In this document: positions 1,286 through 51,902 of the stretch, in pieces | Position numbering within the stretch: the stretch's first letter is position 1 | Layout: every line of letters starts with the position of its first letter | Source of the DNA: an uncultured Gemmatimonadaceae bacterium | Lineage (GTDB): Bacteria; Gemmatimonadota; Gemmatimonadetes; Gemmatimonadales; GWC2-71-9 | Assembly: GCA_964557115.1 (NCBI GenBank) | Contig: CAZKYO010000015.1 | Span: 1,063-65,062 of the forward strand | Length of the DNA stretch: 64,000 nt | Reading direction: 5' to 3' | The notes under the pieces: generated by a model | What the model was told of the DNA's origin: nothing | The model's database searches: none | What the model saw: only the letters and a program-made list of their open reading frames with translations | Made by a program: the position numbers and the translations under genes

Positions 1286-2836
1286 ATGCTCACGACCCGT
1301 TCTGCCCTTCGCGGCCTCCTCTTCCTCCTGCCGATCCTGGCCCTTTCCGGCTGCACCGACGAACAGATCGTCTATCGCGACCGGGAGCCCTACAATCAGC
1401 CTGATGCGGCGGCGGCCGGCTTCCTCGGCTACTACACCGCCTCGGCGAAGAAGACGACGTGCGGCAACTGCCACGTCGGGCACCAGTCCGACTGGGTCGG
1501 CACCAGGCACGCGGGAGCGTGGGAGGACCTCGAGGCCTCCGGTCACGCGAACGACACCTGCCGGCAGTGCCACAGCGTCAACGCCAAGGGCAACTCGGCC
1601 GACGGCACCGTGGGCTGGGACGCCACCAAGGACTCGGTGTACCGCGACGTGCAGTGCGAGTCCTGCCACGGCCCGGGCCTCGAGCACGTGAAGAACCCGG
1701 AGGTTGCGGCGAACATCCCGCTGGCCAACGCGAACATCGCCGACGTCGACGCCAGCTGCGCCAGCTGCCACAACGGGACGCACCATCCGTTCGTCGAGCA
1801 GTGGTCGCTCTCGCGGCACGCGCAGGTCGAGGAGCACACCGTCGGCAACGCCTCGTGTGCTGGCTGCCACGACGGCAAGGCATCGCTGCTGCGGTTCTCG
1901 GGGCAGGATCCGGTGTTTGCCGACAAGGGCGACACCGAGACCTGGCCGGTGACCTGCACCGTCTGCCACGACCCGCACAGCGACCGCAACGAGGGCCAGT
2001 TGCGCAAGCCGGTCAACTCGACCGATCCCGAAGAGAACCTCTGCATGCAGTGCCACATGCGGAAGATCGAGCCCAGCGGCGGCAATTCCCGCGGCAACGC
2101 CCCGCACGCCCCGCAGGGGGCCGTGGTGATCGGCGTCGCCGGATATCGCCCGGCCAACTTTGCCTCGCCCGACGACCAGATCATCTCGACGCACGGGTCA
2201 GGCGCGAATCCGCGACTGTGCGCCGGGTGCCACGTGAACAAGTTCAACGTGACCGATGCCGCCGGCGGCTTCGTCCTCACCTCGGTCGGCCACACCTTCG
2301 GCGCGCTGCCGTGCGTCGATGCCAACGGCGCGCCGATCGGCAACAGCGGCTGCGAGTACACCACGACCGCCCGGACCTTCGTCGGCTGCGTCAACTCGGG
2401 ATGCCATGCCTCGGGGCAGGTTGCGGCCAGCGCGCTCGTGTCGCTCCGGACCCAGATGTCGACCCTGGCCAACCAGCTCTGGGTCGACGGCGACCATGAC
2501 GAGACGATCGACGCCTTCCCGACCGACCAGGGGATGCTGGCGATCATCAAGCGGGACTTCCCGACGGCGATCAACGCCAGCGACAACGTGATCACGCCCG
2601 CCGACGGCGCCGAATTCAACGTGAAGCTGTTTGGCGAGGGTCGGTATGCCAATGGCGACAAGTCCCTCGGCGTCCACAACCCGTTCCTGGCGAAGGCGCT
2701 CCTCGCGGCGAACATCGCCGAGTTGCAGCAGACCTACGGCGTGTCGATCACCGAGCCGGGCGTGGCCGAGCTGGTGCAGTCGTCGATGCAGGCCGCGCGC
2801 GCGCGGTATCCGAACCTGCTGAGCCATCAGCGTTGA
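1286..2836 (+). CDS. Multihaem c-type cytochrome lipoprotein (8 CXXCH + 1 CX4CH)
   Basis: Signal peptide with lipobox LALSGC. Motifs CGNCH, CRQCH, CESCH, CASCH, CAGCH, CTVCH, CMQCH, CAGCH plus CVNSGCH, followed by a haem-free helical C-terminal domain. Confidence 0.85.
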   Translation: MLTTRSALRGLLFLLPILALSGCTDEQIVYRDREPYNQPDAAAAGFLGYYTASAKKTTCGNCHVGHQSDWVGTRHAGAWEDLEASGHANDTCRQCHSVNAKGNSADGTVGWDATKDSVYRDVQCESCHGPGLEHVKNPEVAANIPLANANIADVDASCASCHNGTHHPFVEQWSLSRHAQVEEHTVGNASCAGCHDGKASLLRFSGQDPVFADKGDTETWPVTCTVCHDPHSDRNEGQLRKPVNSTDPEENLCMQCHMRKIEPSGGNSRGNAPHAPQGAVVIGVAGYRPANFASPDDQIISTHGSGANPRLCAGCHVNKFNVTDAAGGFVLTSVGHTFGALPCVDANGAPIGNSGCEYTTTARTFVGCVNSGCHASGQVAASALVSLRTQMSTLANQLWVDGDHDETIDAFPTDQGMLAIIKRDFPTAINASDNVITPADGAEFNVKLFGEGRYANGDKSLGVHNPFLAKALLAANIAELQQTYGVSITEPGVAELVQSSMQAARARYPNLLSHQR

Positions 2837-2837
2837 G

Positions 2838-4853
2838 TTGGCCGTCCAGGCGCCGCTGATGGTCCTGCAGGGGAATCCCCCGGACACCCTCGTCGACTCG
2901 ACGCTGGCGAGGTTCCAGCAGGGAATTCCGGCCGAGGCCTCTCCCCTTCCGGGAGGGGTCTCGGCCGTGATGCGGGTGATCTTCAACGCCCCGCTCTGGG
3001 CCTGGTTGACCGCGATCGTCGTCGGGCTGGTCGTCGCCGTCATGGTGGTCCGGCTGGCCTGGACCAACCGGGTGCGACTGCGCGGGTGGGTCACCACGCG
3101 TGACCGGGGCGCCAGGTTCGCCATGCTGGGCGCGCTGGTGGTGGTGCTTGGCCTGGTCGGCTTCACCGGGCTGTCGGGCTGGAACTACATGCAGCACGAC
3201 AACGACTTCTGCGTCAGCTGCCACGTGATGCAGGGGCCGTGGAACAAGTTCGCGGCGGACGCGGGGAAGCACAGCGACCGCAAGTGCCACGACTGCCACC
3301 AGCAGTCGCTCTACGCCTCGGCGCGCCAGCTCGTCCTCTGGGTCGCCGATCGCCCGCAGGACATCCCCAAGCACGCGCCGGTCCCCAATGCGCGCTGCGA
3401 GTCGTGCCACAACACCAACGGCGACTCGCTCTGGACCCGGATCGAGGAGACGGCGGGCCACCGGACCCATCTCGAGTCCGATTCGCTCAAGGCCCAGGGG
3501 ATCACCTGCGTGACCTGCCACGGCGCCGAGGTGCACGAGTTCCTGCCGGCCAGCCGGACCTGCGGGCAGTCGGGTTGCCACGAGGACCTGCACATCACGC
3601 TTGGCAAGATGGCGAGCCAGACCACTCTGCACTGCAACCAGTGCCACCAGTTCACCGCCGAGGTGCCCCGCCTGGCCACGCGGGACTCGGCGGCCGGGAC
3701 GCTGCGACCGGGATCGCAGCAGTGCTTCGCCTGCCACCAGATGCGCGAGCGGCTGCCGGACTTCGACCTGAGTCGCGATCCCCACGGCGGCACCTGCGGG
3801 ACGTGCCACAATCCCCACACCCAGGACCGGCCCGAGGACGCGGCGAAGACCTGCACCGATGCCGGCTGCCACGCCGACTGGCGCAACGTGTTCTTCCACA
3901 CCGGGCCTGCGCACCGGAAACAGGGGGAGAACTGCCTCACCTGCCACGCGCCGCACGCCGCAAAGGTCGACGCGAGCGACTGCGTCGGCTGCCACAGCGC
4001 GGTGCGCGAACGGGGGATCCGCCAGCTCCGGCCACCGATGCCGTTCGACACCACGGCGGCGCTCCGGCAGGTCTCGGCGCGGCCCGCGGCGCACCAGCCG
4101 CCGACCGGGGCGGCGGTGCTCGACCCGGTCGCACCGGTGGAACCGCCGCCGCGCGGGAAGGGCGACGCGCCGCCCCCGGACGAGCGACCTCCGAGCGCGA
4201 CACACGTTCCGGCCTCCGTCCAGGTTCCACCCGCCGATTCCTTTCCGCACGCCCGTCACCGATCCCTCGCCTGCATCACCTGCCACGTCTCGCCCGGCTC
4301 CCAGTCGGGCCGCCTGACGTTCGAGCGGCCCCGCGGTTGCGACATCTGCCATCACCAGGCGGCCGCGACGAACAAGTGTGAGCGGTGCCACCGGACCGAC
4401 CGGCTGGCGGTGCCCATGGACGCCACGGTGCAGGTGACGGTCGCGGGACACGCGCCGCGCAGCCGGCCCGTCGTGTTCCGGCATCCGACCCACGATTCGC
4501 TCGCGTGCACCGAGTGTCACACCACGGCGGTCTCGCTCGAACCGAGCGCCGCGACCAAGGGCTGCACGGCGTGCCATGCGTCGCACCACACCGCGAATCG
4601 TCAGTGTGCGGCGTGCCACACCGGCGAGTCGCTGCGGACCGCCCACGCGGCGGACGTGCGCGCGAGCCACCAGCGCTGCGATGCTTGCCACGCACCGGCG
4701 ACGGTCGCCCTGCTGACGCCGGACCGGTCGTTCTGCGCGACATGCCACGCCGCGCAGCGTGCCGACCACTATTCGGCGAAGCAGTGCACCACCTGCCACT
4801 TCCTCGCCGACCCATCCGACTATCGGTCCCACCTGGTCGGCGGGAAGGGATGA
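2838..4853 (+). CDS. Membrane-anchored multihaem c-type cytochrome: NapC/NirT-like N-terminus fused to a long haem-rich domain (18 CXXCH + 2 CX4CH)
   Basis: TTG start 1 nt after the preceding stop. Two hydrophobic helices, then FCVSCH and CHDCH as in NapC/NirT/NrfH-type quinol dehydrogenases. Pro-rich linker (about nt 4027-4250), then 9 more CXXCH. Confidence 0.85.
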   Translation: MAVQAPLMVLQGNPPDTLVDSTLARFQQGIPAEASPLPGGVSAVMRVIFNAPLWAWLTAIVVGLVVAVMVVRLAWTNRVRLRGWVTTRDRGARFAMLGALVVVLGLVGFTGLSGWNYMQHDNDFCVSCHVMQGPWNKFAADAGKHSDRKCHDCHQQSLYASARQLVLWVADRPQDIPKHAPVPNARCESCHNTNGDSLWTRIEETAGHRTHLESDSLKAQGITCVTCHGAEVHEFLPASRTCGQSGCHEDLHITLGKMASQTTLHCNQCHQFTAEVPRLATRDSAAGTLRPGSQQCFACHQMRERLPDFDLSRDPHGGTCGTCHNPHTQDRPEDAAKTCTDAGCHADWRNVFFHTGPAHRKQGENCLTCHAPHAAKVDASDCVGCHSAVRERGIRQLRPPMPFDTTAALRQVSARPAAHQPPTGAAVLDPVAPVEPPPRGKGDAPPPDERPPSATHVPASVQVPPADSFPHARHRSLACITCHVSPGSQSGRLTFERPRGCDICHHQAAATNKCERCHRTDRLAVPMDATVQVTVAGHAPRSRPVVFRHPTHDSLACTECHTTAVSLEPSAATKGCTACHASHHTANRQCAACHTGESLRTAHAADVRASHQRCDACHAPATVALLTPDRSFCATCHAAQRADHYSAKQCTTCHFLADPSDYRSHLVGGKG

Positions 4854-6334
4854 TGCCCCGCCGGCTCGTGCTGCCGATCGTCCTCGCCGCCGCGATCACG
4901 GCACCGCTGGCGGCCCAGGGCTACCGCCTGCGCGTCGACAGCCGGATGCAGGGCATCTCGTGGCGCGGCCTCGAACTCGACAGCATCCCGTTCGCGAATG
5001 CCGTGGCGAATGGCCATGGCGGCTACGAGACGCCGGATGGGCTCGAGGCCCGTTGCCTCGGGGCGCAGTGCCTCTACTTCCGCGCCGGCGGCGTGCAGCG
5101 CGGCGTGCCCTGGGTGACGCAAGCCGACGCCTCGCTCTGGGGCTTCGGGTTGCCGGGCCTGAGCGCGCGGGTCAATGCCCGCCTCAGCGAGGACCTGGGC
5201 AAGGACGCCACGTGGCCCGGGAGCGAGCCGGCGTTGCAGCTCTACGAGGCGTACCTCGAGTACGCCACGCCGTCGCTCACCGCCCGCGCCGGCCGTCAGT
5301 TCCTCACGGGACGCCTCGGCAGTTACGGGCTCGACGGTGGGCGGGTCACCTATCGTCTCCCGTCGCTCGGGCTCGAGGCCGGCGCCTACCTGGGCTGGGG
5401 TCTCGCGAGGGGGACGGCCCTCGTCGTCACCGATCCGGCGCTCAACCCGCTCGATGACTTCCAGCCGCGGGATCGTCAGGTCGTGGCCGGGGCCGACGTC
5501 GCGTGGAACGGGCGGTTCGCCGACCTGCGGGCCGAGTATCGCCGAGAGGTCGACCCGGCAGTGCACTATTTCGTGTCCGAGCGCGCCTCGGCGGCGCTGG
5601 CCCTGCGGCCGATGTCCCGCCTCCGCCTGAGCGGGGGCGCGGTGTACGACATGGCGTTCGGCCAGTTCGGCTCGGCCGAGGCGGCGGCGTCGTGGGTATC
5701 GCGGCTGGTCACGGTGTCGGCGGGCGCGCGTCGTTACCGTCCGCTGTTCGACCTGTGGACCATCTGGGGCGCCTTCTCGCCGGCCGGCTACGAGGCGATC
5801 CACGGCGGCGTGGACGTGACGCCCGTGCGGTTCCTCGTGCTGCACGTGCGGGGCGAGAAGTACCGCTTCGACGACACCGAGACTTCCACGCCGCTGGTCG
5901 ACGTGGAGGACCATGGCTGGCGCTACGACGCGTCCGTGACCTGGATGCCCGATGCCCATTGGACCCTCATCGCGGGACACCAGGCCGAGTTCGGTCCCGG
6001 GGCCGCGTCGCTCGGCTACGACGGGCGGGTCATGTGGGAACCGACGGCGCGGCTGGCGCTCTCGGCGCACGCGTCGCGACTGCGGCGGCCGCTCGAGCTG
6101 CGGTTCAGCGACGCGACGCTGACGGCGTTCGGCGGCGACCTGACCCTTCGGCCGGATGATCGCTGGCGGTTCGATCTCGGTGCCTCGCGGGTGCGCGAGG
6201 ATCGCGACCGTCCCGACGCCGCGGCGATCGACTGGGACCAGTGGCGGGTCACGGCACGGATGAGCTGGGTGATCGGCTCATCCGCCGATCGGTTGCCGCT
6301 CCCGCGCGCCATCCCGACCGGGAGCAACCAGTGA
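4850..6334 (+). CDS. Haem-free secreted protein, predicted outer-membrane beta-barrel (porin-like)
   Basis: ATG at 4850 overlaps the upstream TGA (ATGA). Signal peptide MMPRRLVLPIVLAAAITAPLAAQG. Many alternating hydrophobic/polar stretches of strand length (VTYRLPSLGLEAGAYLGWGL, WRYDASVTWMPDAHWTLIAGHQAEF, RWRFDLGASRV). No Cys or haem motif. ORF 4385-6334 was trimmed. Confidence 0.55.
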   Translation: MMPRRLVLPIVLAAAITAPLAAQGYRLRVDSRMQGISWRGLELDSIPFANAVANGHGGYETPDGLEARCLGAQCLYFRAGGVQRGVPWVTQADASLWGFGLPGLSARVNARLSEDLGKDATWPGSEPALQLYEAYLEYATPSLTARAGRQFLTGRLGSYGLDGGRVTYRLPSLGLEAGAYLGWGLARGTALVVTDPALNPLDDFQPRDRQVVAGADVAWNGRFADLRAEYRREVDPAVHYFVSERASAALALRPMSRLRLSGGAVYDMAFGQFGSAEAAASWVSRLVTVSAGARRYRPLFDLWTIWGAFSPAGYEAIHGGVDVTPVRFLVLHVRGEKYRFDDTETSTPLVDVEDHGWRYDASVTWMPDAHWTLIAGHQAEFGPGAASLGYDGRVMWEPTARLALSAHASRLRRPLELRFSDATLTAFGGDLTLRPDDRWRFDLGASRVREDRDRPDAAAIDWDQWRVTARMSWVIGSSADRLPLPRAIPTGSNQ

Positions 6335-7752
6335 CCCGGTTCCTGCGCCGCGTGCTCCCGGTGCTTGTCGTCGGCCTCGTCGCCTGGGGCGTCGCACAGG
6401 CGCGCAATCCCGCGCCGGTGTTCGACCACGCCAAGCACGTGCGGCTCTTCCCGGCATCGTGCGGCGCCTGCCATCTCGGTGCCGAACAGGACGGGGCACC
6501 GATCTACCCGACGGTGACGTCCTGCGCCGCCTGCCATGACGGCGTGGCCAAGTCCGCGGCCGAATGGCAACCACCCACCGCGAGCAAGCCGACCAACCTC
6601 CGCTTCACCCACGCCGCACATCGACGGGAGACCGGCGACACGGTCCGCTGTGCGAGCTGCCATGCGGGGACCGGGGCGCCCGGATCGATCCATCGAGACG
6701 ATCCGGAGCAGTGTGTCTCGTGTCACGAGCCCGGAAAGCGACACCTGACCGCCTCGGATCGCCAATGTGCCCGCTGCCACGTCCCGCTGGCGCGCGCCAC
6801 GGCGCTGTCGACCGACCGGATCGCCGCGTTCCCGACGCCGCCCAACCACCAGGCCACCGATTTCGCCACCGGTGGACACGGTACCCTGGCCGCGCAGGGG
6901 AACGGCGTGGCCGCGAGCTGTGCGACTTGCCACGCGCGGACCTTCTGCGCGGCCTGCCACGTCAACGCCCCCGAGACCGCCGCGATCCAGGCGCTGATGC
7001 CCGACGCGCGCTCGCTCGCGATCAAGGCGGAGCTCAAGGCGCCGGCCACTCACGCGAGCCCGACCTTCCTCGATGCGCACGGCAGGCAGGCCGCCGGTGA
7101 TCCGGCGCGGTGCGCGACCTGTCACGCCCAGCCGAGTTGCACCGCCTGTCACGTCGCGCCCGGCCCCAAGGCGGTGCGCGCGATGGCAAGGCCCGGCGAG
7201 GGGCGGGGCACCGGTGCGGTCGTCACGCGACACGCGCCCGCGACCCACACGGCGGCCTTCACCGAGGGGCACGGACCCGACGCCGCGGCGTCCCCCCGCA
7301 CCTGCGAGACGTGCCATCGCCGCGACCAGTGCCTCACCTGTCACCGCGGGTCGCCGACCACGGGGGCCAACTACCACCCGGCGAACTTCCTGACGCGCCA
7401 CCCGGCTGCCACCTACGCGCGCCAGACGAGTTGTGCCGACTGCCACAACGTGCAGCAGTTCTGCGTCACCTGCCACGCCTCGGCGGGTCTCAACGCCCAC
7501 AACACGCTGCGGGCGGGACCCTACCACGATGCCAAGGGTGCCTTCGTGCTGAACCACGGCCAGGCGGCGCGGCAGTCGCTCGAGTCGTGCGTCTCCTGCC
7601 ACGTCGAGCGCGACTGCACCTCCTGCCACTCGGCGCTCGGCGGACGGCGCTTCTCGCCGCATGGCCCGGGCTTCGACGCCGACCGGCTCCGTCGCCGGAA
7701 CCCCGAGATGTGCATCGCCTGCCACGGCCGGGCGATCCCGGGAGCGAGCTGA
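6331..7752 (+). CDS. Multihaem c-type cytochrome (16 CXXCH, five doubled CXXCH units)
   Basis: GTG at 6331 overlaps the upstream TGA (GTGA). N-terminal signal/anchor VTRFLRRVLPVLVVGLVAWGVAQA. 16 CXXCH, including 5 pairs spaced CXXCH-x4/5-CXXCH, each preceded by an H-x-n-C c7/c3-like context. Confidence 0.85.
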   Translation: MTRFLRRVLPVLVVGLVAWGVAQARNPAPVFDHAKHVRLFPASCGACHLGAEQDGAPIYPTVTSCAACHDGVAKSAAEWQPPTASKPTNLRFTHAAHRRETGDTVRCASCHAGTGAPGSIHRDDPEQCVSCHEPGKRHLTASDRQCARCHVPLARATALSTDRIAAFPTPPNHQATDFATGGHGTLAAQGNGVAASCATCHARTFCAACHVNAPETAAIQALMPDARSLAIKAELKAPATHASPTFLDAHGRQAAGDPARCATCHAQPSCTACHVAPGPKAVRAMARPGEGRGTGAVVTRHAPATHTAAFTEGHGPDAAASPRTCETCHRRDQCLTCHRGSPTTGANYHPANFLTRHPAATYARQTSCADCHNVQQFCVTCHASAGLNAHNTLRAGPYHDAKGAFVLNHGQAARQSLESCVSCHVERDCTSCHSALGGRRFSPHGPGFDADRLRRRNPEMCIACHGRAIPGAS

Positions 7753-7870
7753 GAAGAGCGAACAGAGAAGAGAGAACGGAGAACCGAGGTGGGGACGCGT
7801 GCACCGGGACCGGATGGTCGCGCGCCGCTGTCCTCTCTCTTCTCTCTTCTCTCTTCTCTTTTCCGTGTTC
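7751..7870. repeat. Heptad-periodic GA-rich arm / CT-rich arm imperfect inverted repeat between convergent genes
   Basis: GAGAAGA GCGAACA GAGAAGA GAGAACG GAGAACC ... TCTCTTC x3 TCTTTTC CGTGTTC. The arms are partly complementary. Confidence 0.7.
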
Positions 7871-8793
7871 TAGTGTCGCTTGTAGGTCTTCTCGCCCGCG
7901 GGGATGGCGAACGCGAACCGGTTCTCTGGTGGCGCCAGCGGGCAGGGTGACGCGTCGGTGAACGCGCAGTCGGGGTTGCGGGCGCGGTTGAAGTCCACCT
8001 CCGTCTGGCCATCCGCGCCGCGCGGCAGGTCGACATCGAGGAACCGGGCCGACGGGTAGCTCCCGGCGCCGCTGGTCGCGTCATGGATCACCACGAGCAC
8101 GTCCGTGGCGTCCTTGCCCTTCGCGTACGCCACCAGTTCGCGGTCCTCGCCCCGGATCCGGACGGCGATGCGACCCGCCACCTGTCGGGGCAGCTCGAAG
8201 CCCCGCACCGTCGGCGTGTGGGTCCACTCACCGTCGGCGGGGATGAACCGGGCGTCGAACCGCCACGCCGTGTCCACCGGCCACCGCTCGATCCCGCCGA
8301 ACGCGGTGCGCGCCTCGGCCAAGGTGTCCACGATCCAGATGGTGATGGCGCCCTCGGCCCATCGACCGCTGAACCGGACCGGCCCGAGCCAGACCCGCGC
8401 CCCGGGCAGGCCGAATTGATCGCGCAGCGCGAGGATCCGGTTGGCCGCGGCCGTGGAGTCGCCTGCCCAGGCGGCCGCACCCTCCGGCACGAAGGTCAGC
8501 GTGTCGCCGCGTGCCACGAGTTGTCCCGCCCGCGAGGCGACGCGGGGCCCGGGGATCACGCACGGAAGGGAATCCGCGCCGCCGATCGCGACGGGCAGCC
8601 GCGCTTCCTCGAGGCGGCAGAGGCCGGTCTGTGCCAGCGGTCCGTTCGCCGAGGGCACCGATGCATCGCGACGGGCGAGCCAGTCGTCGAGCCGGGCTCG
8701 GTAGGCCACGGCGTCGAGCGGTGGCCGCGGCGGCGTGGCGGCGTCGCCGGCACAGGCAGCGAGCAGCAGCAGGAGCGGGAGGCGGCGGGTCAC
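7870..8793 (-). CDS. DUF1684 family lipoprotein
   Basis: Lipobox LLLLAACAG. C-terminal NPDCAFTDASPCPLAPPENRFAFAIPAGEKTYK matches the conserved DUF1684 C-terminal signature (C-x-n-CP-x-P-x-N-x-L-x-IxAGEK). Confidence 0.7.
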   Translation of the reverse strand: MTRRLPLLLLLAACAGDAATPPRPPLDAVAYRARLDDWLARRDASVPSANGPLAQTGLCRLEEARLPVAIGGADSLPCVIPGPRVASRAGQLVARGDTLTFVPEGAAAWAGDSTAAANRILALRDQFGLPGARVWLGPVRFSGRWAEGAITIWIVDTLAEARTAFGGIERWPVDTAWRFDARFIPADGEWTHTPTVRGFELPRQVAGRIAVRIRGEDRELVAYAKGKDATDVLVVIHDATSGAGSYPSARFLDVDLPRGADGQTEVDFNRARNPDCAFTDASPCPLAPPENRFAFAIPAGEKTYKRH

Positions 8794-16200: not shown

Positions 16201-16388
16201 TCATGGCCGGGCTGGCGCCGATCCTCTGGAGCCACGGCACCGGCGCCGACGTGATGAAGCGGATCGCCGCGCCGATGGTGGGCGGCATGGTCACCTCGAC
16301 CGTGCTCACGCTGGTGGTGATTCCGGCGATCTACCTGATCTGGCGTCGGCGGGAGGTTGGACGCCAAACGCCAAACGCTGAACGCTGA
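13266..16388 (+). CDS. Heavy-metal efflux RND transporter (CusA/CzcA family)
   Basis: About 1040 aa with a 12-TM RND architecture. N-terminus MIRDLISWSVRNRALVLFATAG is typical of the HME-RND family. Overlaps the adaptor gene by 11 nt. Confidence 0.9.
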   Translation: MIRDLISWSVRNRALVLFATAGIIGAGLWSARTTPLDAIPDLSDVQVIVQTDYADQAPQIVEDQVTYPVTSEMLKVPGARVVRGYSFFGLSLVYVIFEDGTDLYWARSRVLEYLNGIRRQLPAGAEPTLGPDATGVGWVFEYTLESDSLDLAELRSLQDWNIRYQLTAVPGVSEVASLGGFVKQYQVEVDPERLRAFDIPVTRVAAAIGDHNMDIGARVLEMGGREYMIRGLGYLEGVADIENVSVGTADNGTPIRVADVATVQVGPAPRRGAADLDGKGEVVAGIVVMRYGSDALATIEAVKTRLKAVEASLPPGVRLRVAYDRSDLIHRAIDTLRDKLLEESLIVALVAILFLLHVRSALVAIVVLPIGILLAFIVMRLLGIDANIMSLGGIAIAIGAMVDGAIVMIENMHKHLERAGPEVDRWEVVLRSARQVGPPLFYSLLIITCSFLPVFALEAQEGRLFKPLAFTKTFAMAAAALLSVTLVPVLMGYLIRGRIRSERENPVNRWLQWLYRPVIDFTLRRPWLVVAGGVAVLAVTVLPWRRLGSEFMPQLHEGSILFMPTTVPGVSIAEANAIMRHQDSMLASFPEVERVLGKTGRAATATDPAPLDMYETTLTLAPESKWRPGMTYDRLLAELDSAVRLPGVTNAWTMPIKGRIDMLATGIRTAVGIKIFGPDLDTLQALGERVERLMQGVPGTRSAFAERGVSGYYVDIDIDRAEAARYGLNVGEIHDAIMATVGGMNAATTVERRERYRVNVRYPRELRDDVQKLREVVLPTRSGAQIPLGQVATVAVRQGPMAVKTENAFPVTTVFVDIDASDVGGYVRTARQVVNAGLVLPTGYSLVWSGQYEFMQRVGSRLRLVVPVTLAIIFLLLYLNFRGVTESLIVMLSVPFALVGGVWYLWLAGYNTSVAVWVGFIALAGVAAETGVVMLIYLDEAFARRKAEGLMRGPPDVAEAVRSGAVDRLRPKVMTVVAIMAGLAPILWSHGTGADVMKRIAAPMVGGMVTSTVLTLVVIPAIYLIWRRREVGRQTPNAER

Positions 16389-16409
16389 ACGAGGGACGAG
16401 AGACGAGAG
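16361..16409. repeat. Seven tandem heptads ACGCCAA x2, ACGCTGA x2, ACGAGGG, ACGAGAG x2 spanning the cusA stop codon
   Basis: Seen directly. The first four heptads encode the last residues (..RQTPNAER*) of the RND pump. Confidence 0.7.
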
Positions 16410-19147: not shown

Positions 19148-20953
19148 TCACGTCATCCCGTGCTCCAGCCACGCGTGCTCGCCCGCGAGCACGCGCTGCG
19201 CGGTCCGCCAGGTCGCCACGTCGTCGGGACCGAAGGCGTCGCGGAAGAGGTGGTCGACGCGACGTCGCGCATGGCGGCAAAAGAGGTCGGCCAGCTCCGC
19301 CGCCTCGGCGTTGCCCTCGCGGCCCAGCGCCGTGGCGCGGCTCACGGTCGCGCTCATCGCGAACAGCTCGGCGCCGATGTCCACCAGCCGGAACAGCACT
19401 GACTGCCGCTTCTCCAGCTTCGGTCCGAATCGCACCATCGCATGGAAGAGTGTCCGCGCCAGCTTGCGCGAGCGGCGGGCGACGAAGCGTAGGTGGGCGC
19501 CGTTGCGCCCGTGCGCGCCGAATCCCGACGCACGGAACGGCCACCAGAGCGCCGGGTACCAGCGCAGGTAGAACGCCGCCGACCGGAGCAGCGCCCGGCG
19601 CTTGTCGGCCGCCCCCGCCTTGGAATCGATCAGCGCCCCCGCGACCGACAGGTGGGTGTCCACCGCCTCGCGCGCGATGAAGAGCCGCATGATCTCGCTC
19701 GAGCCCTCGAAGATCCGGTTGATCCGGTTGTCGCGATACATCCGCTCCACCGGGTCCGGGCGCTCGCCGCGCCGTCGCAGCGAGTCGGCCGTCTCGTACC
19801 CGCGTCCGCCCCGGATCTGCAGGCAGTCGTCGATGATGCGATCGGCCATCTCGGTGTTCCACAGCTTGGCGATCGCCGCCTCGAGGCGGATGTCGGCGTC
19901 ACCGCGATCGGCCAGCAGCGAAGCCAGGTCGCTCACCGCCTCCATCGCGAAGGTGTCGGCGGCCATCCGGCCCAGCATCTGGGCGACGGCGTCGTGCCGC
20001 CCGATCGGCTGCCCCCATTGCACCCGTTCGGCCGCCCACGTGCGGGCGATCTGCACCGCCCGCTTGCAACCGGCCGCCGCCGAGGCGGGCAGCGTCAACC
20101 GTCCCGTGTTGAGCGTCGTGAGCGCGAGCTTGAGGCCCTTGCCCTCGCCCCAGAGGATGTTCTCGGCGGGCACCCGGACGTCGGTGAAGCGAAGCACGCC
20201 GTTCTCGATCGCACGGAGCCCCATGAACTCGAGCCGATGGACCAGCTCGACGCCGGGCCAGTCGGTCTCGACGATGAACGCCGTGATGCGCTTGCCGGTC
20301 CGCGCCATCACGACCATCACGCCGGCCACCGGTCCGTTGGTGCACCAGAGCTTCTCGCCGTTCAGGATCCAGTGGCGGCCGTCCTCGCTCGGCTCGGCCC
20401 GGGTCACCAGGCCGGCCGGGTCGGAGCCCACCCCGGTCTCGGTGAGTGCAAACGCGCTGATCTCGCCCGCGGCGATGCGGGGCAGGTAGCGTCGCTTCTG
20501 CTCCTCGGTGCCGAAGAGGAGCAGCGGCACCGAGACCCCGATCGACTGGCTCGCCGAGAGCAGCGCGGTCAGCGAGCCGTCCTGCGAGGTGACCAGGCCG
20601 ATGGCGCGCGTGTACATCAGCTGGCTCAGGCCGAGTCCGCCGTACTCGCGGGGAATCTTGATGCCGAAGGCGCCGAGGGCCCTGAGCCCCTCCACGACCG
20701 CTTCGGGCACCTTGCCGGCACGGTCGATCGCATCGCTGTCGACCTCCTCGCGCAGGAAGCGGCCGAGCGCCTCGAGGAACGGCGTCGCCCGGGCCACGTC
20801 GTCGGCCGACGGGGCGGGGAACGGATCGATCCGCTCGAGCCGGAGGCGGCCCTCGAACAGCTCGCGCACGAAGCTGGGCGCGGTCCATTCCTGTTCACGC
20901 GCCGCTTCGGCGACCGCGCGCGCCTCGGCCTCGGTGGGGGTGGTCGAGGTCAT
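19148..20953 (-). CDS. Acyl-CoA dehydrogenase (long form with C-terminal helical extension)
   Basis: Trimmed from the 749-aa ORF to the ATG at 20953, which forms an ATGA overlap with the tetR stop. ACAD segments [32 protein letters not shown] and IFEGSSEIM. Confidence 0.85.
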
Positions 20954-21597
20954 CGTGCCCCCGGGCGGCGCACCGGCAGCGCCGCCGTGAGGAGTGCCGT
21001 GATGTGGCGCTTGCGCTGGGTCAGGTACCCGGGGGATTCGGGCTCGAGGCCGAGTGCCGGCACCAGCGAGTCCTTGTGCAGCTCGGGGAACCAGGTCAGC
21101 GCGACGAGGGAGAGGACGAGGTGGCGGATCGCGGATCGGGCCGCGACGGGATAGCCGAGTTGCTCCGCGAGCGCGGCGACCGCCTCCGCGCCCAGGGCGA
21201 ACCCTTCGGGCCGGGACGGGTCGGCAGGGCCGAGTCCGAGCGCCTCCCAGTGCAGCAACCGGACGAAGTTCGGGTGCGCCGACACGAAGTCGATGTACTC
21301 GCTCACCGCGCCGGCGAGCACCTCGACCGGCGGCTTGCCGCTCCGTTCCGCGCGCAGCTTGCCGCTCCGGACCGCATCGAGGGCATCCGCGAAGCACCTG
21401 GCGATCACGGCACGGTAGAGCCCGTGCTTCGAGACGAAGAAGTAGCCGGGCGAGCCGCGGGAGAGCCCGGCGGCATGGCCGACGTCGGCCATCGTGGTGT
21501 CGGCGTAGCCGCGCTCGGCGAACATCGCTTCGGCGGCCTCGAGGATGGCGGTGCGCGAGCGCTCGGCATCGCGGGTCTTGACGGGCTTGCGGGACAC
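20950..21597 (-). CDS. TetR/AcrR family transcriptional regulator
   Basis: N-terminal [49 protein letters not shown] start with a strong GGGAGG SD. Translationally coupled to the ACAD gene. Confidence 0.85.
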
Positions 21598-21608
21598 GGA
21601 AGCCTCCC

Positions 21609-21630
21609 TAGCTTGGCTATAAGCAAGCTA
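21609..21630. promoter_or_regulatory. Near-perfect 22-bp palindrome TAGCTTGGCTATAAGCAAGCTA, candidate TetR operator
   Basis: 9 of 11 positions pair. It lies directly upstream of the tetR SD and GTG, in the most AT-rich stretch of the local region. Confidence 0.45.
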
Positions 21631-21665
21631 TTTCCGGATCGTCCAGCGCGGTAGGGCCCGGTGCC

Positions 21666-21728
21666 CCTCCAGCCTCGCCCCTCGCCTGTCGCCGGTCGCT
21701 TGTCGCCTGTCGCCTGTCGCCTGTCGCC
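21666..21728. repeat. Nine tandem heptads (CCTCCAG CCTCGCC x2 TGTCGCC GGTCGCT TGTCGCC x4) directly after the kinase stop
   Basis: Seen directly. No inverted partner is evident. Confidence 0.7.
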
Positions 21729-21729
21729 C

Positions 21730-23628
21730 CTACGCCGGCGTCGGGCTCGGCGTGCGGCCGACCAGTCCCCGGACGCCGCGATGGGCGCCGAGATCCTGGA
21801 GCAGCTCCAACTCGAGTTCGCGGGCGTCGTGCAGGTGGCGGGTGAGCTCGCCGGCGGGGGCGGCCTCGCCGGCCAGCCGGAGCAGGACGAGCCGCAGCCG
21901 TTCGAGTGCGCCGAGCGCCTGCTGGCGGTGCCGCTCGAGGCGCTCGCGGAGGTGGAGCTGCTGCTCGGCCAGCTCCGGCGTCAGTGCCTCGAGATGCGCG
22001 AGCGAGGTCCGGACCTCCTCGAGCCGGCGGCGCAATCCGTCGGCCACCATGGGGAGGTCGCCGAGTCCATGACGGGAGCCGGGTGGCAAGGCCCGCCAGA
22101 GGTCACCGATCTGGAGCCCCAGCATGACCTCGGTCGGGCGGTGCAGCGTGGTCTCGGCGCTGTGCTCCGGCAGGCCCAGTGCCGTGCAGCGGTACCACCA
22201 CTCGCCCAGCCGGCTGTGCCAGAACGCGCGCCGGAGCCGCCACCGTCGATCCACCGGCACCTGCTTGCGCCCGGGGACCACGACCCCGAGGCCGCGCAGC
22301 GTCCAGAAGCCGGCCCATGAGAGCGGCAGCACGTAGGGGATCCAACGCCAGACCAGCAGTCGCCAGCCGAACGGCAGGCCGATCGGCGTGCGTCCCTTCG
22401 CGGCAAAGAGGAGCAGTACGACGAGCAGGGCACCAAGGCCGCTGCCGAGCATCCGGATCACGCGACCGGCGGGGCGCGGGGCGATAGGTCCCGCCGCCCG
22501 GCGCTCGTCGAGGCGGCGGTCGAGGGCGAGGCGCAGGTCCTCGATCCGGTAACCGGACCGGGCGGCGCGGCGCGCCGCGCGCCACGCCATGCCGGCTTGC
22601 ACGCTGCCGACCACCAGGGAGATCGCCAGCAGCAACCGGGCACCCCAGGTGACGAACGGCACGGCGTTGCTCATTGCCGCGAGCAATCCAATCGCGCCGA
22701 CGACACCGGCCGACGTGACGGCGAGGGCGTGCAGCGGCCGCACGGATTCGCGGACGGCGACCCAGCGCTCGAGCGGCTCGGCGAGGCCCGCCTGTGCCAG
22801 CTGCCCCTCGAGCTCCGCGAGCCAGGTCTCGACGGTGTGGGGCCGACTGGCCGGGTCCTTGGCCAGCAGTCGCTCGATGGCCCGTGCCAGTCGCCTCGGC
22901 GTGGCCGCGGCGGCGCTGGCGAGCGGCGCGATCGCCTCGCTCACCTGGCGCACGAGCACCCGGGCCGGATCGTCGTCCACAAAGGGCAGCCGGCCGGTCA
23001 GGGCGGTCCAGCCCACCACCCCGAGTGCGTACAGGTCGCTCGCCGTCGACGGCGGCTCACCGTGCACCAGCTCCGGAGCCAGGTAGGCGGGCGTGCCGAC
23101 CAATGGTCCCGCCTCGCCCTCGCGCTCGACCGCGATGCCGAAGTCGCACAGCAGCGCGCGGCCGGTGCGCCGGTCGAGGAGGATGTTGTCGACCGTCACG
23201 TCGCGGTGCAGGACGCCGGCCGCATGGGCGGCGCCGAGCGCCCAGCCCACCTCGCGGAGGATCCGCTCGGCCTCGGCGGCGGGGAGCGGTCCCTCGCGGC
23301 GGAGCCGCACGCCGAGCGATTCGCCGTCGACGAGGCCCATCACGAAGAAGACCAGGTCGTCGCGTTCGACGACGTCGTAGATCGGCACGATGTGGGGATG
23401 AGTCAGTCGCGCGCCGGTCCGCGCCTCGCGGAGGAACCGCGCCCGCTGCTCGGGATCGGCCGCGAGCGCCGGATCGAGCAGCTTGATGGCGACGGGCCGG
23501 TCGAGCGCCACATCCCGGGCGAGGTAGACGGTGCCCATCCCGCCCCTGCCGATGGCGCGTTCGATCGACCACGTCCCGGCGACCGCGGCCTGCAGCGCGG
23601 CAAACGCGAGCGCGTCGGTGTCGCTCAC
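21730..23628 (-). CDS. Membrane Ser/Thr protein kinase (Hanks type, atypical HRDVTVDN loop), paralogue 2
   Basis: GRGGMGTVY, VAIK, HRDVTVDN, DFG and APE motifs, then about 4 TM helices and a helical C-terminal domain. GTG at 23628 forms a GTGA overlap with the upstream kinase stop. The 771-aa ORF was trimmed. Confidence 0.8.
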   Translation of the reverse strand: MSDTDALAFAALQAAVAGTWSIERAIGRGGMGTVYLARDVALDRPVAIKLLDPALAADPEQRARFLREARTGARLTHPHIVPIYDVVERDDLVFFVMGLVDGESLGVRLRREGPLPAAEAERILREVGWALGAAHAAGVLHRDVTVDNILLDRRTGRALLCDFGIAVEREGEAGPLVGTPAYLAPELVHGEPPSTASDLYALGVVGWTALTGRLPFVDDDPARVLVRQVSEAIAPLASAAAATPRRLARAIERLLAKDPASRPHTVETWLAELEGQLAQAGLAEPLERWVAVRESVRPLHALAVTSAGVVGAIGLLAAMSNAVPFVTWGARLLLAISLVVGSVQAGMAWRAARRAARSGYRIEDLRLALDRRLDERRAAGPIAPRPAGRVIRMLGSGLGALLVVLLLFAAKGRTPIGLPFGWRLLVWRWIPYVLPLSWAGFWTLRGLGVVVPGRKQVPVDRRWRLRRAFWHSRLGEWWYRCTALGLPEHSAETTLHRPTEVMLGLQIGDLWRALPPGSRHGLGDLPMVADGLRRRLEEVRTSLAHLEALTPELAEQQLHLRERLERHRQQALGALERLRLVLLRLAGEAAPAGELTRHLHDARELELELLQDLGAHRGVRGLVGRTPSPTPA

Positions 23629-25576: not shown

Positions 25577-25662
25577 GAGACTCGAGATTCGCGATTCGTG
25601 ATTCGAGGGTGCCGGCGATCGCCCGGGCTCGTCCGCAATTCGCGAATCTCGACTCGCGAATC
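25577..25662. repeat. Heptad-periodic inverted arms (GAGACTC GAGATTC GCGATTC GTGATTC ... GCAATTC GCGAATC TCGACTC GCGAATC) flanking a GGCGATCGCC palindrome
   Basis: Seen directly between the queF stop and the kinase start. The arms are roughly reverse-complementary. Confidence 0.7.
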
Positions 25663-26046
25663 TCACGGCAGCGTCACGCTGCAGGTGGTGAGGAAGCCGC
25701 CCCGGATGTTGTAGCGCGTCGTGACGGTCAGCGTCCTGGCGCCGAGCACCCGCTGCAGGTCCTCGGCGAGCCGGGCGGTGGCGTGTTCCTGGTAGATCCC
25801 GACGTTGCGATAGCTCATCACGTAGTACTTGAGCGACTTGAGTTCGACACACCGGTCGCTCGGCACGTAGCTGAGGGTGAGCTTCGCCTGGTCGGGGAGC
25901 CCACTGAAGGGGCAGACCGCCGAGAACTCGTCGGTCTCGGTGACGATCTCCTGGGCGGGGCCCTCGTAGGGGAAGGTCTCCAGGACCGCGACGTCGATCG
26001 CCTCGGGTCCGGTGAACGGGATGGTGCGGCCTTCGGCGCTTGGCAC
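25663..26046 (-). CDS. queF: NADPH-dependent 7-cyano-7-deazaguanine (preQ0) reductase, type I
   Basis: FSAVCPFSGLPD catalytic Cys segment and the ELKSLKYY QueF motif. About 127 aa, GTG start. Confidence 0.85.
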   Translation of the reverse strand: MPSAEGRTIPFTGPEAIDVAVLETFPYEGPAQEIVTETDEFSAVCPFSGLPDQAKLTLSYVPSDRCVELKSLKYYVMSYRNVGIYQEHATARLAEDLQRVLGARTLTVTTRYNIRGGFLTTCSVTLP

Positions 26047-30159: not shown

Positions 30160-30187
30160 GGGAGTCGCGGCCTCGGCTCCCTCTTTT
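30160..30187 (+). terminator. Putative intrinsic terminator after the methyltransferase gene
   Basis: GGGAGTCG-loop-CGGCTCCC stem followed by TCTTTT. Confidence 0.45.
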
Positions 30188-30205
30188 CGCGGGACACGCG
30201 CGTTC

Positions 30206-36306: not shown

Positions 36307-37577
36307 GCCACCACTTCGACGGCACGGCGGTCTCTGCCCGGCTCGCCGACAAGAGCATCCAGGGCGACTACAAGATCTTCGTGCCGATCGGCGCGGTGCT
36401 CGCGCTTGCGGGGCTGGCACTCTTCGTCATCGCCCTGATGGGCGACGGCTCCCATCGCGCCTGGCAGAACTTCCACGTCAACTGGCTGTTCTGGACCGGC
36501 CTCACCGCCGGATCGATCGCGATCACCGCCGTCTACAAGGTCGCCAACGCCAAGTGGAGCGGCGTGATCCTGCGCTTCTCCCAGGCGGTCTCGGCGATGA
36601 TCCCGGTCACGCTCGTCGGCCTGGTCTTGACGCTGACGCTGGGCTACGACGACGTGTTCGGCCACATGCAGGAGGAGCTGCACACGCTCTCCCCCGGCAA
36701 GCAGCTCTGGCTCTCGCGCCCCTGGATGAGCGCCCGCCTGCTGCTCGGCCTCGGCCTGCTCTACGCCATCGGGATGGCGCTGATCCGCTGCGACCTGCTG
36801 CCCGACCTCGCCCTGGTGCGCGACAAGGTCACCGGTGCCCGCAAGGCCCGCTACGACCGCATGCTGCAGCGGTTCGACCCGGCCGCGACCCTGACGCGGA
36901 CCTACCGCCTCGCCCCGATCTACGCCGTCACCTATGCCCTGGTGATGACGATCGTCGCCTTCGACGGGATCATGGCGCTCCAGCCGCACTGGTTCAGCAA
37001 CCTCTTCGGCGGCTCGTTCTTCATGGCCTCGTTCCTCGGTGGCCACACCCTGCTGGCATTGCTGATCCTGCACGGCACCAGGGCCGTCGGCCTGGAGGAA
37101 TACGTCACTCCCAAGCAGCGGCACGACCTCGGCAAGATGATCTTCGGCTTCACCGTGTTCTGGACCTACCTGATGTGGGCCCAGTTCCTGGTGATCTGGT
37201 ACGGCAACATGCCCGAGGAGACCGGCTTCATCTTCGCGCGGCTCTGGGGCCCGTGGCGGCCGATCGGCGGTGCCGTGTTCCTGGGGATGTTCGTGGTGCC
37301 GTTCGCCGGGCTGCTCTCGGTCGGGGCCAAGAAGACCCGCTTCACGCTGGGGCTGTTCACCGCGATCTCCCTCACCGCCCTCTGGCTCGAGCGCTACCTG
37401 ATGGTGACGCCGACGGTCACGCCGGAGGCCGGGCCGGTCTTCGGCCTTCCCGAGGCGGGACCGACGCTGCTCTTCGCGGGCCTGTTCTTCCTGAGCTACG
37501 CCTGGTTCACGAGGACCTACCCGATGGTGTCGCCCCGGATGTCGCTGATCACGCTGGAGCGCGAGGCGAGCCACTAG
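36303..37577 (+). CDS. actF: Alternative Complex III subunit ActF (second NrfD-like membrane subunit)
   Basis: GTG at 36303 forms a GTGA overlap. Polytopic membrane protein paralogous in style to ActC. Confidence 0.75.
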   Translation: MSHHFDGTAVSARLADKSIQGDYKIFVPIGAVLALAGLALFVIALMGDGSHRAWQNFHVNWLFWTGLTAGSIAITAVYKVANAKWSGVILRFSQAVSAMIPVTLVGLVLTLTLGYDDVFGHMQEELHTLSPGKQLWLSRPWMSARLLLGLGLLYAIGMALIRCDLLPDLALVRDKVTGARKARYDRMLQRFDPAATLTRTYRLAPIYAVTYALVMTIVAFDGIMALQPHWFSNLFGGSFFMASFLGGHTLLALLILHGTRAVGLEEYVTPKQRHDLGKMIFGFTVFWTYLMWAQFLVIWYGNMPEETGFIFARLWGPWRPIGGAVFLGMFVVPFAGLLSVGAKKTRFTLGLFTAISLTALWLERYLMVTPTVTPEAGPVFGLPEAGPTLLFAGLFFLSYAWFTRTYPMVSPRMSLITLEREASH

Positions 37578-37580
37578 CAG

Positions 37581-37690
37581 GCGAGAAGAGAGAAAGAGGG
37601 AAGAGAAAGCGCAGAGGCCGGCCCCGAATATCGGGCGCCGGCCTCTCTTCTTGTTCTCCGTCCTCCGCTCCCTGTTCCCTCTTCCCTCGC
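37581..37690. repeat. Heptad-periodic GA-rich arm / CT-rich arm inverted repeat with a strong GC core hairpin (37613-37646), between convergent genes
   Basis: GAGAAGA GAGAAAG AGGGAAG AGAAAGC ... core AGAGGCCGGCCCCGA-ATA-TCGGGCGCCGGCCTCT (15 bp, one bulge) ... CTGTTCC CTCTTCC CTCGCC. Confidence 0.75.
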
Positions 37691-38650
37691 CTACTCCACC
37701 CGCAGCCGGCTGCCGGCCAGCGCCTCGAGGGAGTCGATCGGCAGGTAGCCGGCGACGGTGACCATCCGCACGGTCCGAATCGGGCTGGCATCGGTGCCGA
37801 CGTAGTCGGGGCGGGCGCGGCGGGCGGCGGCGAGGGTGAGGCCGCTCGCCTCGAGCATCTCGGTGACCGGCCCGATCTCGTCGGTCGAGCCCTCGACGAC
37901 CCAGACGGCGCGTCCATCGGGGAGGACCTGTCGCACCATCGCCGTCGGGCGGCCGCCCTGCCGGCTCGGCTGCAGGCGGACGGCGTTGACCGGGATCCCG
38001 TCGAGGTGCGCGATGGTGCCGGCGGTCTCGCGGGCCTGCTGCATCGAGGTGGTCTGCCAGCTGGCGCCGCCGTTGCCGGGATCGACCTCGACCATCGGGT
38101 CGACCATCCGGAGCCTCGCGCCGCCGCCGTCGCTCACCTGGTTCACCGTCATCACCCGCGGGGCCATCGTGGCGCGCGAGGCGAGCGTGAGGGTGCGCGC
38201 GGTGGCCGAACGCCGCGCCGCGGCGGCGCCGCCGACGGGCAGCAGGGCCGCCTCGCGCTCCACCGGCGCGACGACGCGGGCGAGGATCGCCGGGGCGACG
38301 AAGGCACTGGCGAGCACCGGGCCGCCGGTCGCATCCGTGGCGCCGCGGTTCATCGTCAGGGTGGTGACGGCAAGGATCAGCCCCGCCGCGACCGCCGCCG
38401 CCGGGCCGAGGCGTCGACGGCGCGGTGTCGCGGCCGGGAGCTCGAGTCCCCGGATGCTGCGGGGCGACGCCAGGGCGAGCAGGTCGCGGCTGCGGGACTG
38501 CAGCGCCCGCACCTCTGCCTCGAGCGCGCGGCAGATGAGGCACGCCAGCAGGTGCTCGGCGATCTCCGCGCGCTGGACACGCGAGAGCTCGCCGTCGAGG
38601 TAGGCGTGGAGTTCCTCTTCAGGAAGATGCGGCCGCACGCTGCTCCTCAC
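37691..38650 (-). CDS. Anti-sigma factor (zf-HC2 type) with a single TM helix and a periplasmic domain
   Basis: N-terminal LHAYLDGELS...HLLACLICRALEAE zinc-finger anti-sigma motif, TM segment AAAVAAGLILAVTTL. Overlaps the sigma gene 3' end (start uncertain, 38638-38650). Confidence 0.65.
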   Translation of the reverse strand: MRSSVRPHLPEEELHAYLDGELSRVQRAEIAEHLLACLICRALEAEVRALQSRSRDLLALASPRSIRGLELPAATPRRRRLGPAAAVAAGLILAVTTLTMNRGATDATGGPVLASAFVAPAILARVVAPVEREAALLPVGGAAAARRSATARTLTLASRATMAPRVMTVNQVSDGGGARLRMVDPMVEVDPGNGGASWQTTSMQQARETAGTIAHLDGIPVNAVRLQPSRQGGRPTAMVRQVLPDGRAVWVVEGSTDEIGPVTEMLEASGLTLAAARRARPDYVGTDASPIRTVRMVTVAGYLPIDSLEALAGSRLRVE

Positions 38651-51830: not shown

Positions 51831-51841
51831 CCGGCGGGACA

Positions 51842-51901: not shown

Positions 51902-51902
51902 T

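Follow-up and report, generated by a model that had tools for sequence, protein, structure and literature searches.

Between the stop codons of two convergent genes in the 64,000-nt stretch of Gemmatimonadaceae DNA analyzed here (the window), which encode a multi-haem c-type cytochrome and a DUF1684 protein, respectively, lies a spacer of 117 nt that is filled by one hairpin, both arms of which consist of tandem 7-nt units. This element is real and far beyond chance. As judged from its sequence, the hairpin has about an even chance of acting at the 3' ends of both transcripts as a bidirectional terminator and/or a block to exonucleases, with arms that would have been built by 7-nt slippage. 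With gene calls taken from a self-trained codon model, which reproduces the database gene calls, the element and the genes on either side are arranged as follows:

6331 to 7752, plus strand: multi-haem c-type cytochrome gene (Pfam Cytochrome_C7, MtrC/MtrF and Paired_CXXCH; gene calls)
7751 to 7785, plus strand: GA arm of five heptads, the 5' arm of the plus-strand hairpin (Tandem Repeats Finder)
7786 to 7835, no strand assigned: non-periodic core with its own stem-loop (50 nt, 76% GC), followed on the plus strand by a U/C-rich tail
7836 to 7870, plus strand: CT arm of five heptads, which on the minus strand is the purine-rich 5' arm after the DUF1684 stop codon (Tandem Repeats Finder)
7870 to 8793, minus strand: DUF1684 gene (Pfam PF07920; 9 contigs encode the identical protein)

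The cytochrome stop codon, TGA (7750-7752), is partly shared with the first heptad of the GA arm, whose units read GAGAAGA, GCGAACA, GAGAAGA, GAGAACG and GAGAACC. On the other side of the core, the CT arm (TCTCTTC three times, then TCTTTTC and CGTGTTC) ends in a C with which the DUF1684 stop codon, read as CTA on the plus strand (7870-7872), begins. A preliminary description of this DNA had reported the same layout with a spacer of about 45 nt; both arms were confirmed, and the spacer measures 50 nt. The composition had also been called unlike that of the rest of the window, and indeed the GC content is 0.51 in the GA arm (purine fraction 0.86) and 0.43 in the CT arm (purine fraction 0.06) as compared to 0.717 in the window. 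RNA folding of the core plus tail (7786-7850) yielded -30.4 kcal/mol, and a simple terminator scan of the plus strand flagged a terminator-like site at 7812-7833 with the tail TCTCTCTTCT.

The intergenic autocorrelation at period 7 was 0.95, a value that none of 2000 dinucleotide-preserving shuffles reached (shuffle maximum 0.76). The earlier claims that the arms are complementary in several registers and that they form a long imperfect hairpin across the convergent spacer were both borne out; Watson-Crick pairing between the arms was 73, 76, 77 and 91% in four registers 7 nt apart, and the whole element folded as RNA with -67.3 kcal/mol on the plus strand (z -5.3) and -61.7 kcal/mol on the minus strand (z -4.9). 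The element was identical in nine independent assemblies (L001-L009), except for one single-nucleotide polymorphism (SNP) in the core in L009, and it is therefore not an assembly artefact. Three of the nine contigs (L006-L008) end 38-39 nt past the DUF1684 stop codon, inside the low-complexity arm.

Folded as DNA, the whole element reached -34.5 kcal/mol (z -4.5), and an all-pyrimidine run of 34 nt with mirror-symmetric units (7831-7864), which the CT arm overlaps, falls under the definition of a potential H-DNA-forming tract, a homopurine/homopyrimidine mirror repeat of at least 15 bp. These properties would suit arms that form a triplex (H-DNA), or a palindrome that extrudes as a cruciform, with effects on supercoiling or replication. 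However, C residues interrupt the GA arm, this composition is limited to the two GA/CT elements of the window while the arms of other members are of mixed sequence, and no observation links triplex formation to the entire class; a role in DNA structure is extremely unlikely. The triplex proposed in the preliminary description is thus allowed by the sequence at this locus, but does not extend to most members of the class.

Period 7 was the only period not divisible by 3 for which strong arrays were found across the whole window. Four further heptad loci, all named in the preliminary description, were recovered, and its view that the element belongs to a set of heptad arrays, one far beyond chance, was borne out; among these four, hairpins were found only at 25577 and 37583:

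16361 to 16409, plus strand: single array of ACGCCAA (two), ACGCTGA (two), ACGAGGG and ACGAGAG (two), with no hairpin (z +0.2)
21675 to 21729, minus strand: single array of about eight GGCGACA units (minus-strand reading), unstructured (minus-strand z +0.7, plus-strand z +3.1)
25577 to 25662, no strand assigned: heptad-armed hairpin, GAGATTC/GCGATTC/GTGATTC on one side and GAATCNC on the other
37583 to 37690, no strand assigned: second GA/CT heptad-armed hairpin, between convergent genes with stop codons at 37575-37577 and 37691-37693

All five loci lie in the approximately 5% of the window that is intergenic or overlap just the last codons of a gene, and the distance from stop codon to array ranges from -28 to +16 nt, mostly 0 to 5 nt. 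Hairpins with inverted arms are found at three of the five (7751, 25577 and 37583). The element at 37583 has a GC-rich stem-loop, GAGGCCGGCCCCGAATATCGGGCGCCGGCCTC, as its core and folds with -61.2 and -73.9 kcal/mol on the two strands (z -5.0 and -6.2); its core and pyrimidine tail were also flagged by the simple terminator scan. The hairpin at 25577 (-47.8 and -46.0 kcal/mol, z -2.2 and -2.7) is located between the stop codon of a QueF-like gene (25663-25665, minus strand) and the start of the next kinase gene. The array at 16361 contains the last 28 nt of an RND-transporter coding sequence together with its stop codon (16386-16388). The array at 21675 directly follows the stop codon of a Ser/Thr kinase gene (21730-21732) and is located upstream of the promoter and operator of a TetR-family gene; a palindromic operator-like sequence, CTAGCTTGGCTATAAGCAAGCTAT, and a TATAAG box are found at 21600-21640, just downstream of this GGCGACA array and immediately upstream of that gene (minus strand, 20950-21597). 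The units vary by locus, with GAGAAGA found at two loci, followed by GAGATTC, ACGNNNN and GGCGACA at the others. The window also carries a canonical terminator with a stem and T-tract at approximately 30160-30190 and, in its other long convergent intergenic region (51831-51902), an end-to-end, near-perfect GC-rich hairpin (RNA -74.3 kcal/mol, z -9.4) that has neither heptad periodicity nor a T-tract. Where genes converge in this genome, long hairpins thus seem to be usual.

The preliminary description regarded these elements as genome-specific, which does not hold, as heptad-armed hairpins with the same architecture were found around DUF1684 homologues in other metagenome-assembled genomes (MAGs) of the Gemmatimonadales, with units that are unrelated between lineages, and also in Gemmatirosa. 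The loci of relatives were gathered with an alignment query, and the relatives of the DUF1684 protein are all Gemmatimonadales, which places the window in an uncultured member of that order; a single DUF1684 protein query of the genome collection matched none, and a metagenome scan returned only 3 loci. Directly after the orthologous DUF1684 gene of L014, three AGGGTGA units are followed by eight TCACCCK units (-84.7 kcal/mol, z -8.6), and L024 carries four GCGAGAA and four TTCTCGC units on either side of a 7-nt loop (-71.8 kcal/mol, z -9.7); one arm SNP separates L024 from L026, in line with a background divergence of 1%. Arms of GGAAGTC/GGGAGTC were found in L021. Single unstructured heptad arrays are also present at L013, L019 and L044, the last with four GGGGGAC-type units (GGACGGG in another register) at a stop codon.

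In approximately 280 kb of MAG DNA, 10 of the 17 heptad arrays had an inverted partner within 200 nt (at least 18 matches in 21 nt, with distant regions as controls), while none had one in control regions 3 kb away; for other periods, inverted partners numbered 0 for periods 5, 6 and 8-11, and 1 in 31 arrays for period 12. The heptad arrays of relatives usually abut or overlap stop codons. Where coding sequences run into arrays, the stop codons are supplied by repeat units or by the loop, as was seen in the window (16361-16388), in L014 (6390-6407 and 6480-6501), in L017 (6586-6625) and on Gemmatirosa plasmid 1 (171869-171926). Several proteins thus carry C-termini that were rewritten by the arrays. 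The G-rich or purine-rich arm comes first in approximately 57 of the 61 arrays with an inverted partner in the MAGs and Gemmatirosa combined, a count that includes family copies, which are not independent of one another. The rule holds for every independent MAG hairpin and is broken by three GAGCGTG palindromes of Gemmatirosa and by a single 11-nt array, which is doubtful.

The proposal that the hairpin terminates or stabilizes both transcripts is based on this purine-first polarity, on its position, on the terminator-like core and tail, and on the plain hairpin at the other convergent junction. As either RNA is transcribed, the GC-rich core stem-loop would form first and would then be extended as the A/G-rich 5' arm pairs with the U/C-rich 3' arm; since the layout is symmetrical, both transcripts would present purine arm, core and pyrimidine arm in that order. 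This order would follow the scheme of A-tract, hairpin and U-tract by which an intrinsic terminator acts in both directions, here fitted to a genome with 72% GC, and the same hairpin could also block 3'-to-5' exonucleases. The arms may have been assembled by repeated slipped-strand duplications of 7 nt, in a lineage biased toward tandem duplications of this size, a bias known from some bacteria as an excess of heptanucleotide simple repeats. Selection for the stem, or else copying from arm to arm, could have preserved their rough complementarity. Termination or stabilization probably does not require the 7-nt periodicity, which most likely records how the arms were built, i.e., by slippage; both the function and this origin are inferred. 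Signs of slippage are that adjacent units are more alike than distant ones, that the two arms can differ in unit number (3 as compared to 8 in L014), and that arrays extend up to the ends of coding sequences and in places take these over. A small terminator-like hairpin in L017 with a single 7-nt duplication in one arm suggests, from its sequence, a single step of this process.

Bidirectional intrinsic terminators between convergent genes have been described (Ju et al. 2019, as cited in PMC13613805). As far as this citing paper conveys, the element resembles them in its convergent position, its GC-rich stem-loop, the complementary tracts on either side of it (A-rich 5' and U-rich 3' in those terminators) and the same polarity on both strands, but differs from them in having mixed C/U tails in place of a proper U-tract, a far longer stem of approximately 45 pairs and arms of tandem heptads. 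In species of high GC content, terminator stems are generally longer and U-tracts shorter (PMC13613805), a trend that was counted toward the terminator reading.

Further elements were found in 700 kb of plasmid 1 (NZ_CP007129) of the cultured species Gemmatirosa kalamazoonensis. Palindromes of the form (GGGACTC)n ... (GAGTCCC)n are present at six loci with unrelated flanks and variable loops, and each of the six GGGACTC arrays with at least three units is an inverted pair. Four loci carry GAGCGTG palindromes, and an analogous type with 8-nt units, GGCTGCGT, also occurs. Gemmatirosa elements lie in 25 tandem, 11 convergent and 7 divergent contexts and 5 times within open reading frames (ORFs), while the intergenic DNA background is 58% tandem, 14% convergent and 27% divergent. 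The elements are thus modestly shifted toward 3' ends, a shift whose weight is limited by the gene calls. A further possibility, though a rather unlikely one, is that the elements represent an undescribed class of tandem-repeat-armed palindromes found throughout the Gemmatimonadales, with units of 7 nt in the MAGs and of 7-8 nt (possibly longer) in Gemmatirosa. Such palindromes would arise afresh at gene 3' ends with their polarity fixed as purine-first, would serve as bidirectional terminators or end protectors that lack a U-tract, and would obtain their arms by a specific 7-nt slippage or by fold-back copying.

At the DUF1684-cytochrome junction itself, the element varies greatly among relatives. 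In L042, whose DUF1684 protein is 77% identical to that of the window, the spacer is 146 nt long, with ACGATNN heptads after the cytochrome stop codon and AGACGNN heptads after the DUF1684 stop codon; despite these arrays, no significant overall hairpin was found (z +0.4 and -0.8). Four relatives with 44-47% protein identity (L019, L022, L023 and L024/L026) show the same convergence with approximately 5-20 nt between the stop codons and neither element nor hairpin at the junction. A hairpin conserved at the orthologous junction was therefore rejected, given the lack of a significant fold in L042 and the near absence of intergenic DNA in the four relatives. Heptad periodicity recurs at this junction, while the unit sequence does not and the hairpin does so only in some cases. 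Because the junction of distant relatives carries no element and the arrays of L042 are built from another unit and do not form a strong hairpin, the element is a recent, fast-changing and lineage-specific gain at this junction. In L042, positions 1342-1476, i.e., the last 135 nt of the contig, which represent the 3' end of the cytochrome gene, are 100% identical to window positions 7608-7742, in contrast to the merely 77% identity of the adjacent DUF1684 protein. Either short reads were assembled into a chimeric contig across a conserved stretch, or recombination took place at the spacer that bears the repeats.

Several of these observations weigh against a shared 3'-end hairpin as the functional unit. 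The tails are mixed C/U sequences with approximately 45-57% U, the simple scan revealed no terminator-like site on the minus strand, where the tail is GGTTCTCCGTTCTC, and the GGGACTC arms of Gemmatirosa are not U-rich. The TAAAGGG arms of L025 are located in a divergent region. Two perfect GGGACTC/GAGTCCC palindromes lie inside long Gemmatirosa ORFs (246607-246692 and 339454-339526); as there is no stop codon and GC content at third codon positions has the same phase on either side, they appear to be in-frame intragenic insertions, and variant units that are mirrored between their arms suggest that one arm was copied from the other. With regard to the slippage component, the number of heptads is the same in all nine assemblies, which represent essentially one strain. 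Finally, two of the five window loci (16361 and 21675) are single unstructured arrays, and these arrays, taken together with L042, imply that periodicity rather than the hairpin is the recurrent feature. The terminator or stabilizer proposal is accordingly put forward with the caution that single unstructured arrays, L042, intragenic copies and relatives without the element call for.

Many of the same observations could be explained if the arrays were a neutral by-product of a slippage bias in this lineage, tolerated mostly just past stop codons, with a hairpin that has no function of its own and inverted pairs that arise by fold-back (template-switch) copying of an array. This explanation would account for the unstructured arrays at 16361, 21675, L013, L019 and L044, for the arrays without a hairpin in L042, for units that are wholly different between relatives and an element that is absent from distant ones, for arrays that intrude into the ends of coding sequences, for unequal unit numbers between arms, and for the perfect palindromes that sit in frame within ORFs of Gemmatirosa and have mirrored variant units. 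Neutral copying would, however, not be expected to produce the strong purine-first polarity; the inverted pairing of every Gemmatirosa GGGACTC array in the 700-kb sample, the inverted partners of 10 of the 17 MAG arrays as compared to 0 in controls, and the modest excess in convergent regions also argue against it. A neutral origin is possible, but rather unlikely.

The recurrence of units could also reflect repeated sites for a DNA- or RNA-binding protein, arranged in inverted sets. In Gemmatirosa, GGGACTC, GAGCGTG and GGCTGCGT each recur at unlinked loci while their flanks are not conserved and their loops vary, and similar arrays in Geobacter metallireducens have been interpreted as "global regulator binding sites" (PMC2700814). 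On the other hand, the units differ from locus to locus in the window (GAGAAGA, GAGATTC, ACGNNNN and GGCGACA) and are unrelated between lineages at orthologous sites. A unit that is free to change while the architecture recurs argues against a single sequence-specific binding protein and points to structure and mutational bias, and protein-binding arrays are an unlikely explanation.

A small mobile palindromic element, similar to MITEs (miniature transposable elements with inverted repeats) or REPINs, that inserted between both genes would explain why the junction is enlarged from approximately 5-20 nt in relatives to 117 nt here. Gemmatirosa also carries true dispersed families with repeat arms, i.e., a family of approximately 150 nt and a nested composite with 9-nt and 10-nt repeats, and some heptad palindromes are found in frame inside ORFs, as are Rickettsia palindromic elements. 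Insertion of this kind is nevertheless very unlikely, as neither terminal inverted repeats nor a target-site duplication nor a conserved core was found, the Gemmatirosa heptad palindromes have unrelated flanks and loops, a pattern search of the 64-kb window yielded no further copies of the element, and the arms of the two GA/CT elements (7751 and 37583) are no more alike (27 of 39 identities) than unit-order shuffles (P = 0.09).

The first of the dispersed Gemmatirosa families is MITE-like, with at least 15 copies in 700 kb (e.g., plasmid 1 positions 183399-183498, 442969-443069 and 668328-668427; L028-L041). Terminal inverted repeats (G-CTCCACGTACG ... CGTACGTGGAG-C), which the element described here does not have, are conserved in this family, and each arm contains 3-4 subterminal 11-nt repeats (GGACTGAAGRR); no description of this family was found in the literature searched. 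The second family is a nested composite palindrome of approximately 170-190 nt (e.g., 187555-187728 and 389493-389678), the outer arms of which contain 10-nt repeats (CCGCAGAGGG) and the inner arms 9-nt repeats (CRGAGGACA). At least 6 copies with conserved non-repeat parts were found, and the 9-nt unit resembles the class 2 unit of Geobacter metallireducens, TCTCCGTS.

The preliminary description had found no match to repetitive extragenic palindromes (REPs) and bacterial interspersed mosaic elements (BIMEs), MITEs and CRISPRs, and the defining features of each are indeed missing. REP, BIME and REPIN sequences of proteobacteria are extragenic palindromes of approximately 100 nt, usually located just 3' of genes, which can stabilize the upstream mRNA; REPs form sequence families with a conserved head and many copies that are mobilized by a RAYT transposase. 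By contrast, no sequence is conserved between the loci described here and the arms are internally periodic, and these families were rejected because the window contains no conserved multi-copy palindrome family. MITEs were rejected for lack of terminal inverted repeats, a target-site duplication or near-identical copies, and CRISPRs, which consist of 23-50 nt repeats with unique spacers, because the 7-nt units are contiguous and form two inverted sets. The sole match at the gathering score of Rfam in the window was a tRNA elsewhere, and a lenient threshold yielded only sub-threshold matches to eukaryotic miRNA hairpins in the element region.

The additional claim that the element matches no repeat family did not stand, as similar repeats have been described in Xanthomonas (PMC4692102) and in Geobacter metallireducens (PMC2700814). 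The closest described case is represented by the paired GGGAATC (GGGANTN) heptamers of Xanthomonas, for which 186 sites with approximately 70 convergent inverted pairs and possible stem-loops were reported (PMC4692102, Rehm et al. 2015). These heptamers are mostly intergenic, are located on average 28 nt after the upstream ORF as compared to 160 nt before the next, and vary in unit number between species, and their role was not established (PMC4692102). The elements described here share with them the close convergent inverted arrays, the tandem 7-nt units and a location much nearer to where the upstream ORF ends than to the ORF that follows. Unlike in Xanthomonas, where one conserved G-rich unit with G-quadruplex potential is found, units vary here by locus and lineage, and the element has a non-periodic GC-rich core and arms that overlap both stop codons and belongs to a different phylum. 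Its GAGAAGA and GAGAACN units do not fit GGGANTN and have neither G3 tracts nor G-quadruplex potential (four or more such tracts), whereas Gemmatirosa GGGACTC and L021 GGGAGTC do fit.

In Geobacter metallireducens, tandem units of 5-9 nt are arranged in sets of 3-5 on opposite strands with variable spacing; several classes of such paired sites occur, as well as GGGACCG elements of four units, both between and within genes (PMC2700814, Aklujkar et al. 2009). As in Gemmatirosa, several unit families are found per genome. In contrast to the elements described here, every class in Geobacter consists of tens of copies of a single conserved unit and was interpreted as a set of regulator binding sites, some sites are targets for insertion sequences, and no link to 3' ends was reported. 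The cyanobacterial STRR heptamers and the TAACTGA repeats of Beggiatoaceae are likewise tandem heptanucleotide arrays in intergenic DNA (PMC4679880), but their units are fixed and nearly always form direct arrays, and TAACTGA is found just upstream of start codons.

More generally, heptanucleotides were reported in 2007 as the most over-represented long simple sequence repeats in many bacteria, with slippage proposed as their origin (Mrazek, Guo and Shah 2007, as cited in PMC4679880 and PMC4692102). To the extent that these citing papers relay it, the arrays described here agree with that class in having over-represented 7-nt tandem units, mostly outside genes, in scattered bacterial lineages; the units (5-11 nt in the definition of the class) are head to tail, the arrays are beyond chance and they lie mainly outside coding sequence. 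Relatives differ from the present element in both unit number and unit sequence. As relayed there, the 2007 analysis was statistical, and inverted pairing, purine-first polarity and stop-codon contact distinguish the elements described here from it. The only detailed study of heptanucleotide repeats is that in Xanthomonas, which left the inverted pairs unexplained, and no description of such repeats in Gemmatimonadota was found in the literature searched. New here are thus paired heptad repeats at gene 3' ends in another phylum, Gemmatimonadota, a recurrent architecture (inverted arms, purine-first polarity and stop-codon contact) with a freely changing unit, and an orthologous junction that carries the element in some lineages but not in others. 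As Gemmatirosa kalamazoonensis is cultured, termination, RNA stability and the rates of 7-nt gains and losses can be measured directly in this species, and, should the class prove to be lineage-wide, Gemmatirosa would provide an experimental handle on why heptanucleotide repeats are over-represented in bacteria. From a practical point of view, the arms break short-read assemblies and draw gene calls through stop-free repeats, which calls for caution in the annotation of Gemmatimonadota genomes.

GANTC is contained in several unrelated heptads (as GATTC, GAGTC, GACTC or GAATC), including those at 25577-25662 in the window, L021 13262-13299, the Gemmatirosa GGGACTC loci and Xanthomonas GGGAATC; a GNGA or GANTC core was noticed by eye only. 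The Gemmatirosa methylome lists no GANTC methyltransferase (PMC3974934), and the shared GANTC may be a coincidence. Upstream of the element, four consecutive genes on the same strand (1286-7752) include several multi-haem c-type cytochromes with MtrC/MtrF-like and Cytochrome_C7 matches, and this cluster is conserved beside DUF1684 in several Gemmatimonadales MAGs. Elsewhere in the window, approximately 2.8 copies of an 11-nt direct repeat, ATTGTCATCGA, which is unusually AT-rich for this genome, are found at 62451-62482, within 121 nt of intergenic sequence upstream of the gene at 62567, and this repeat may represent a regulator-binding site.

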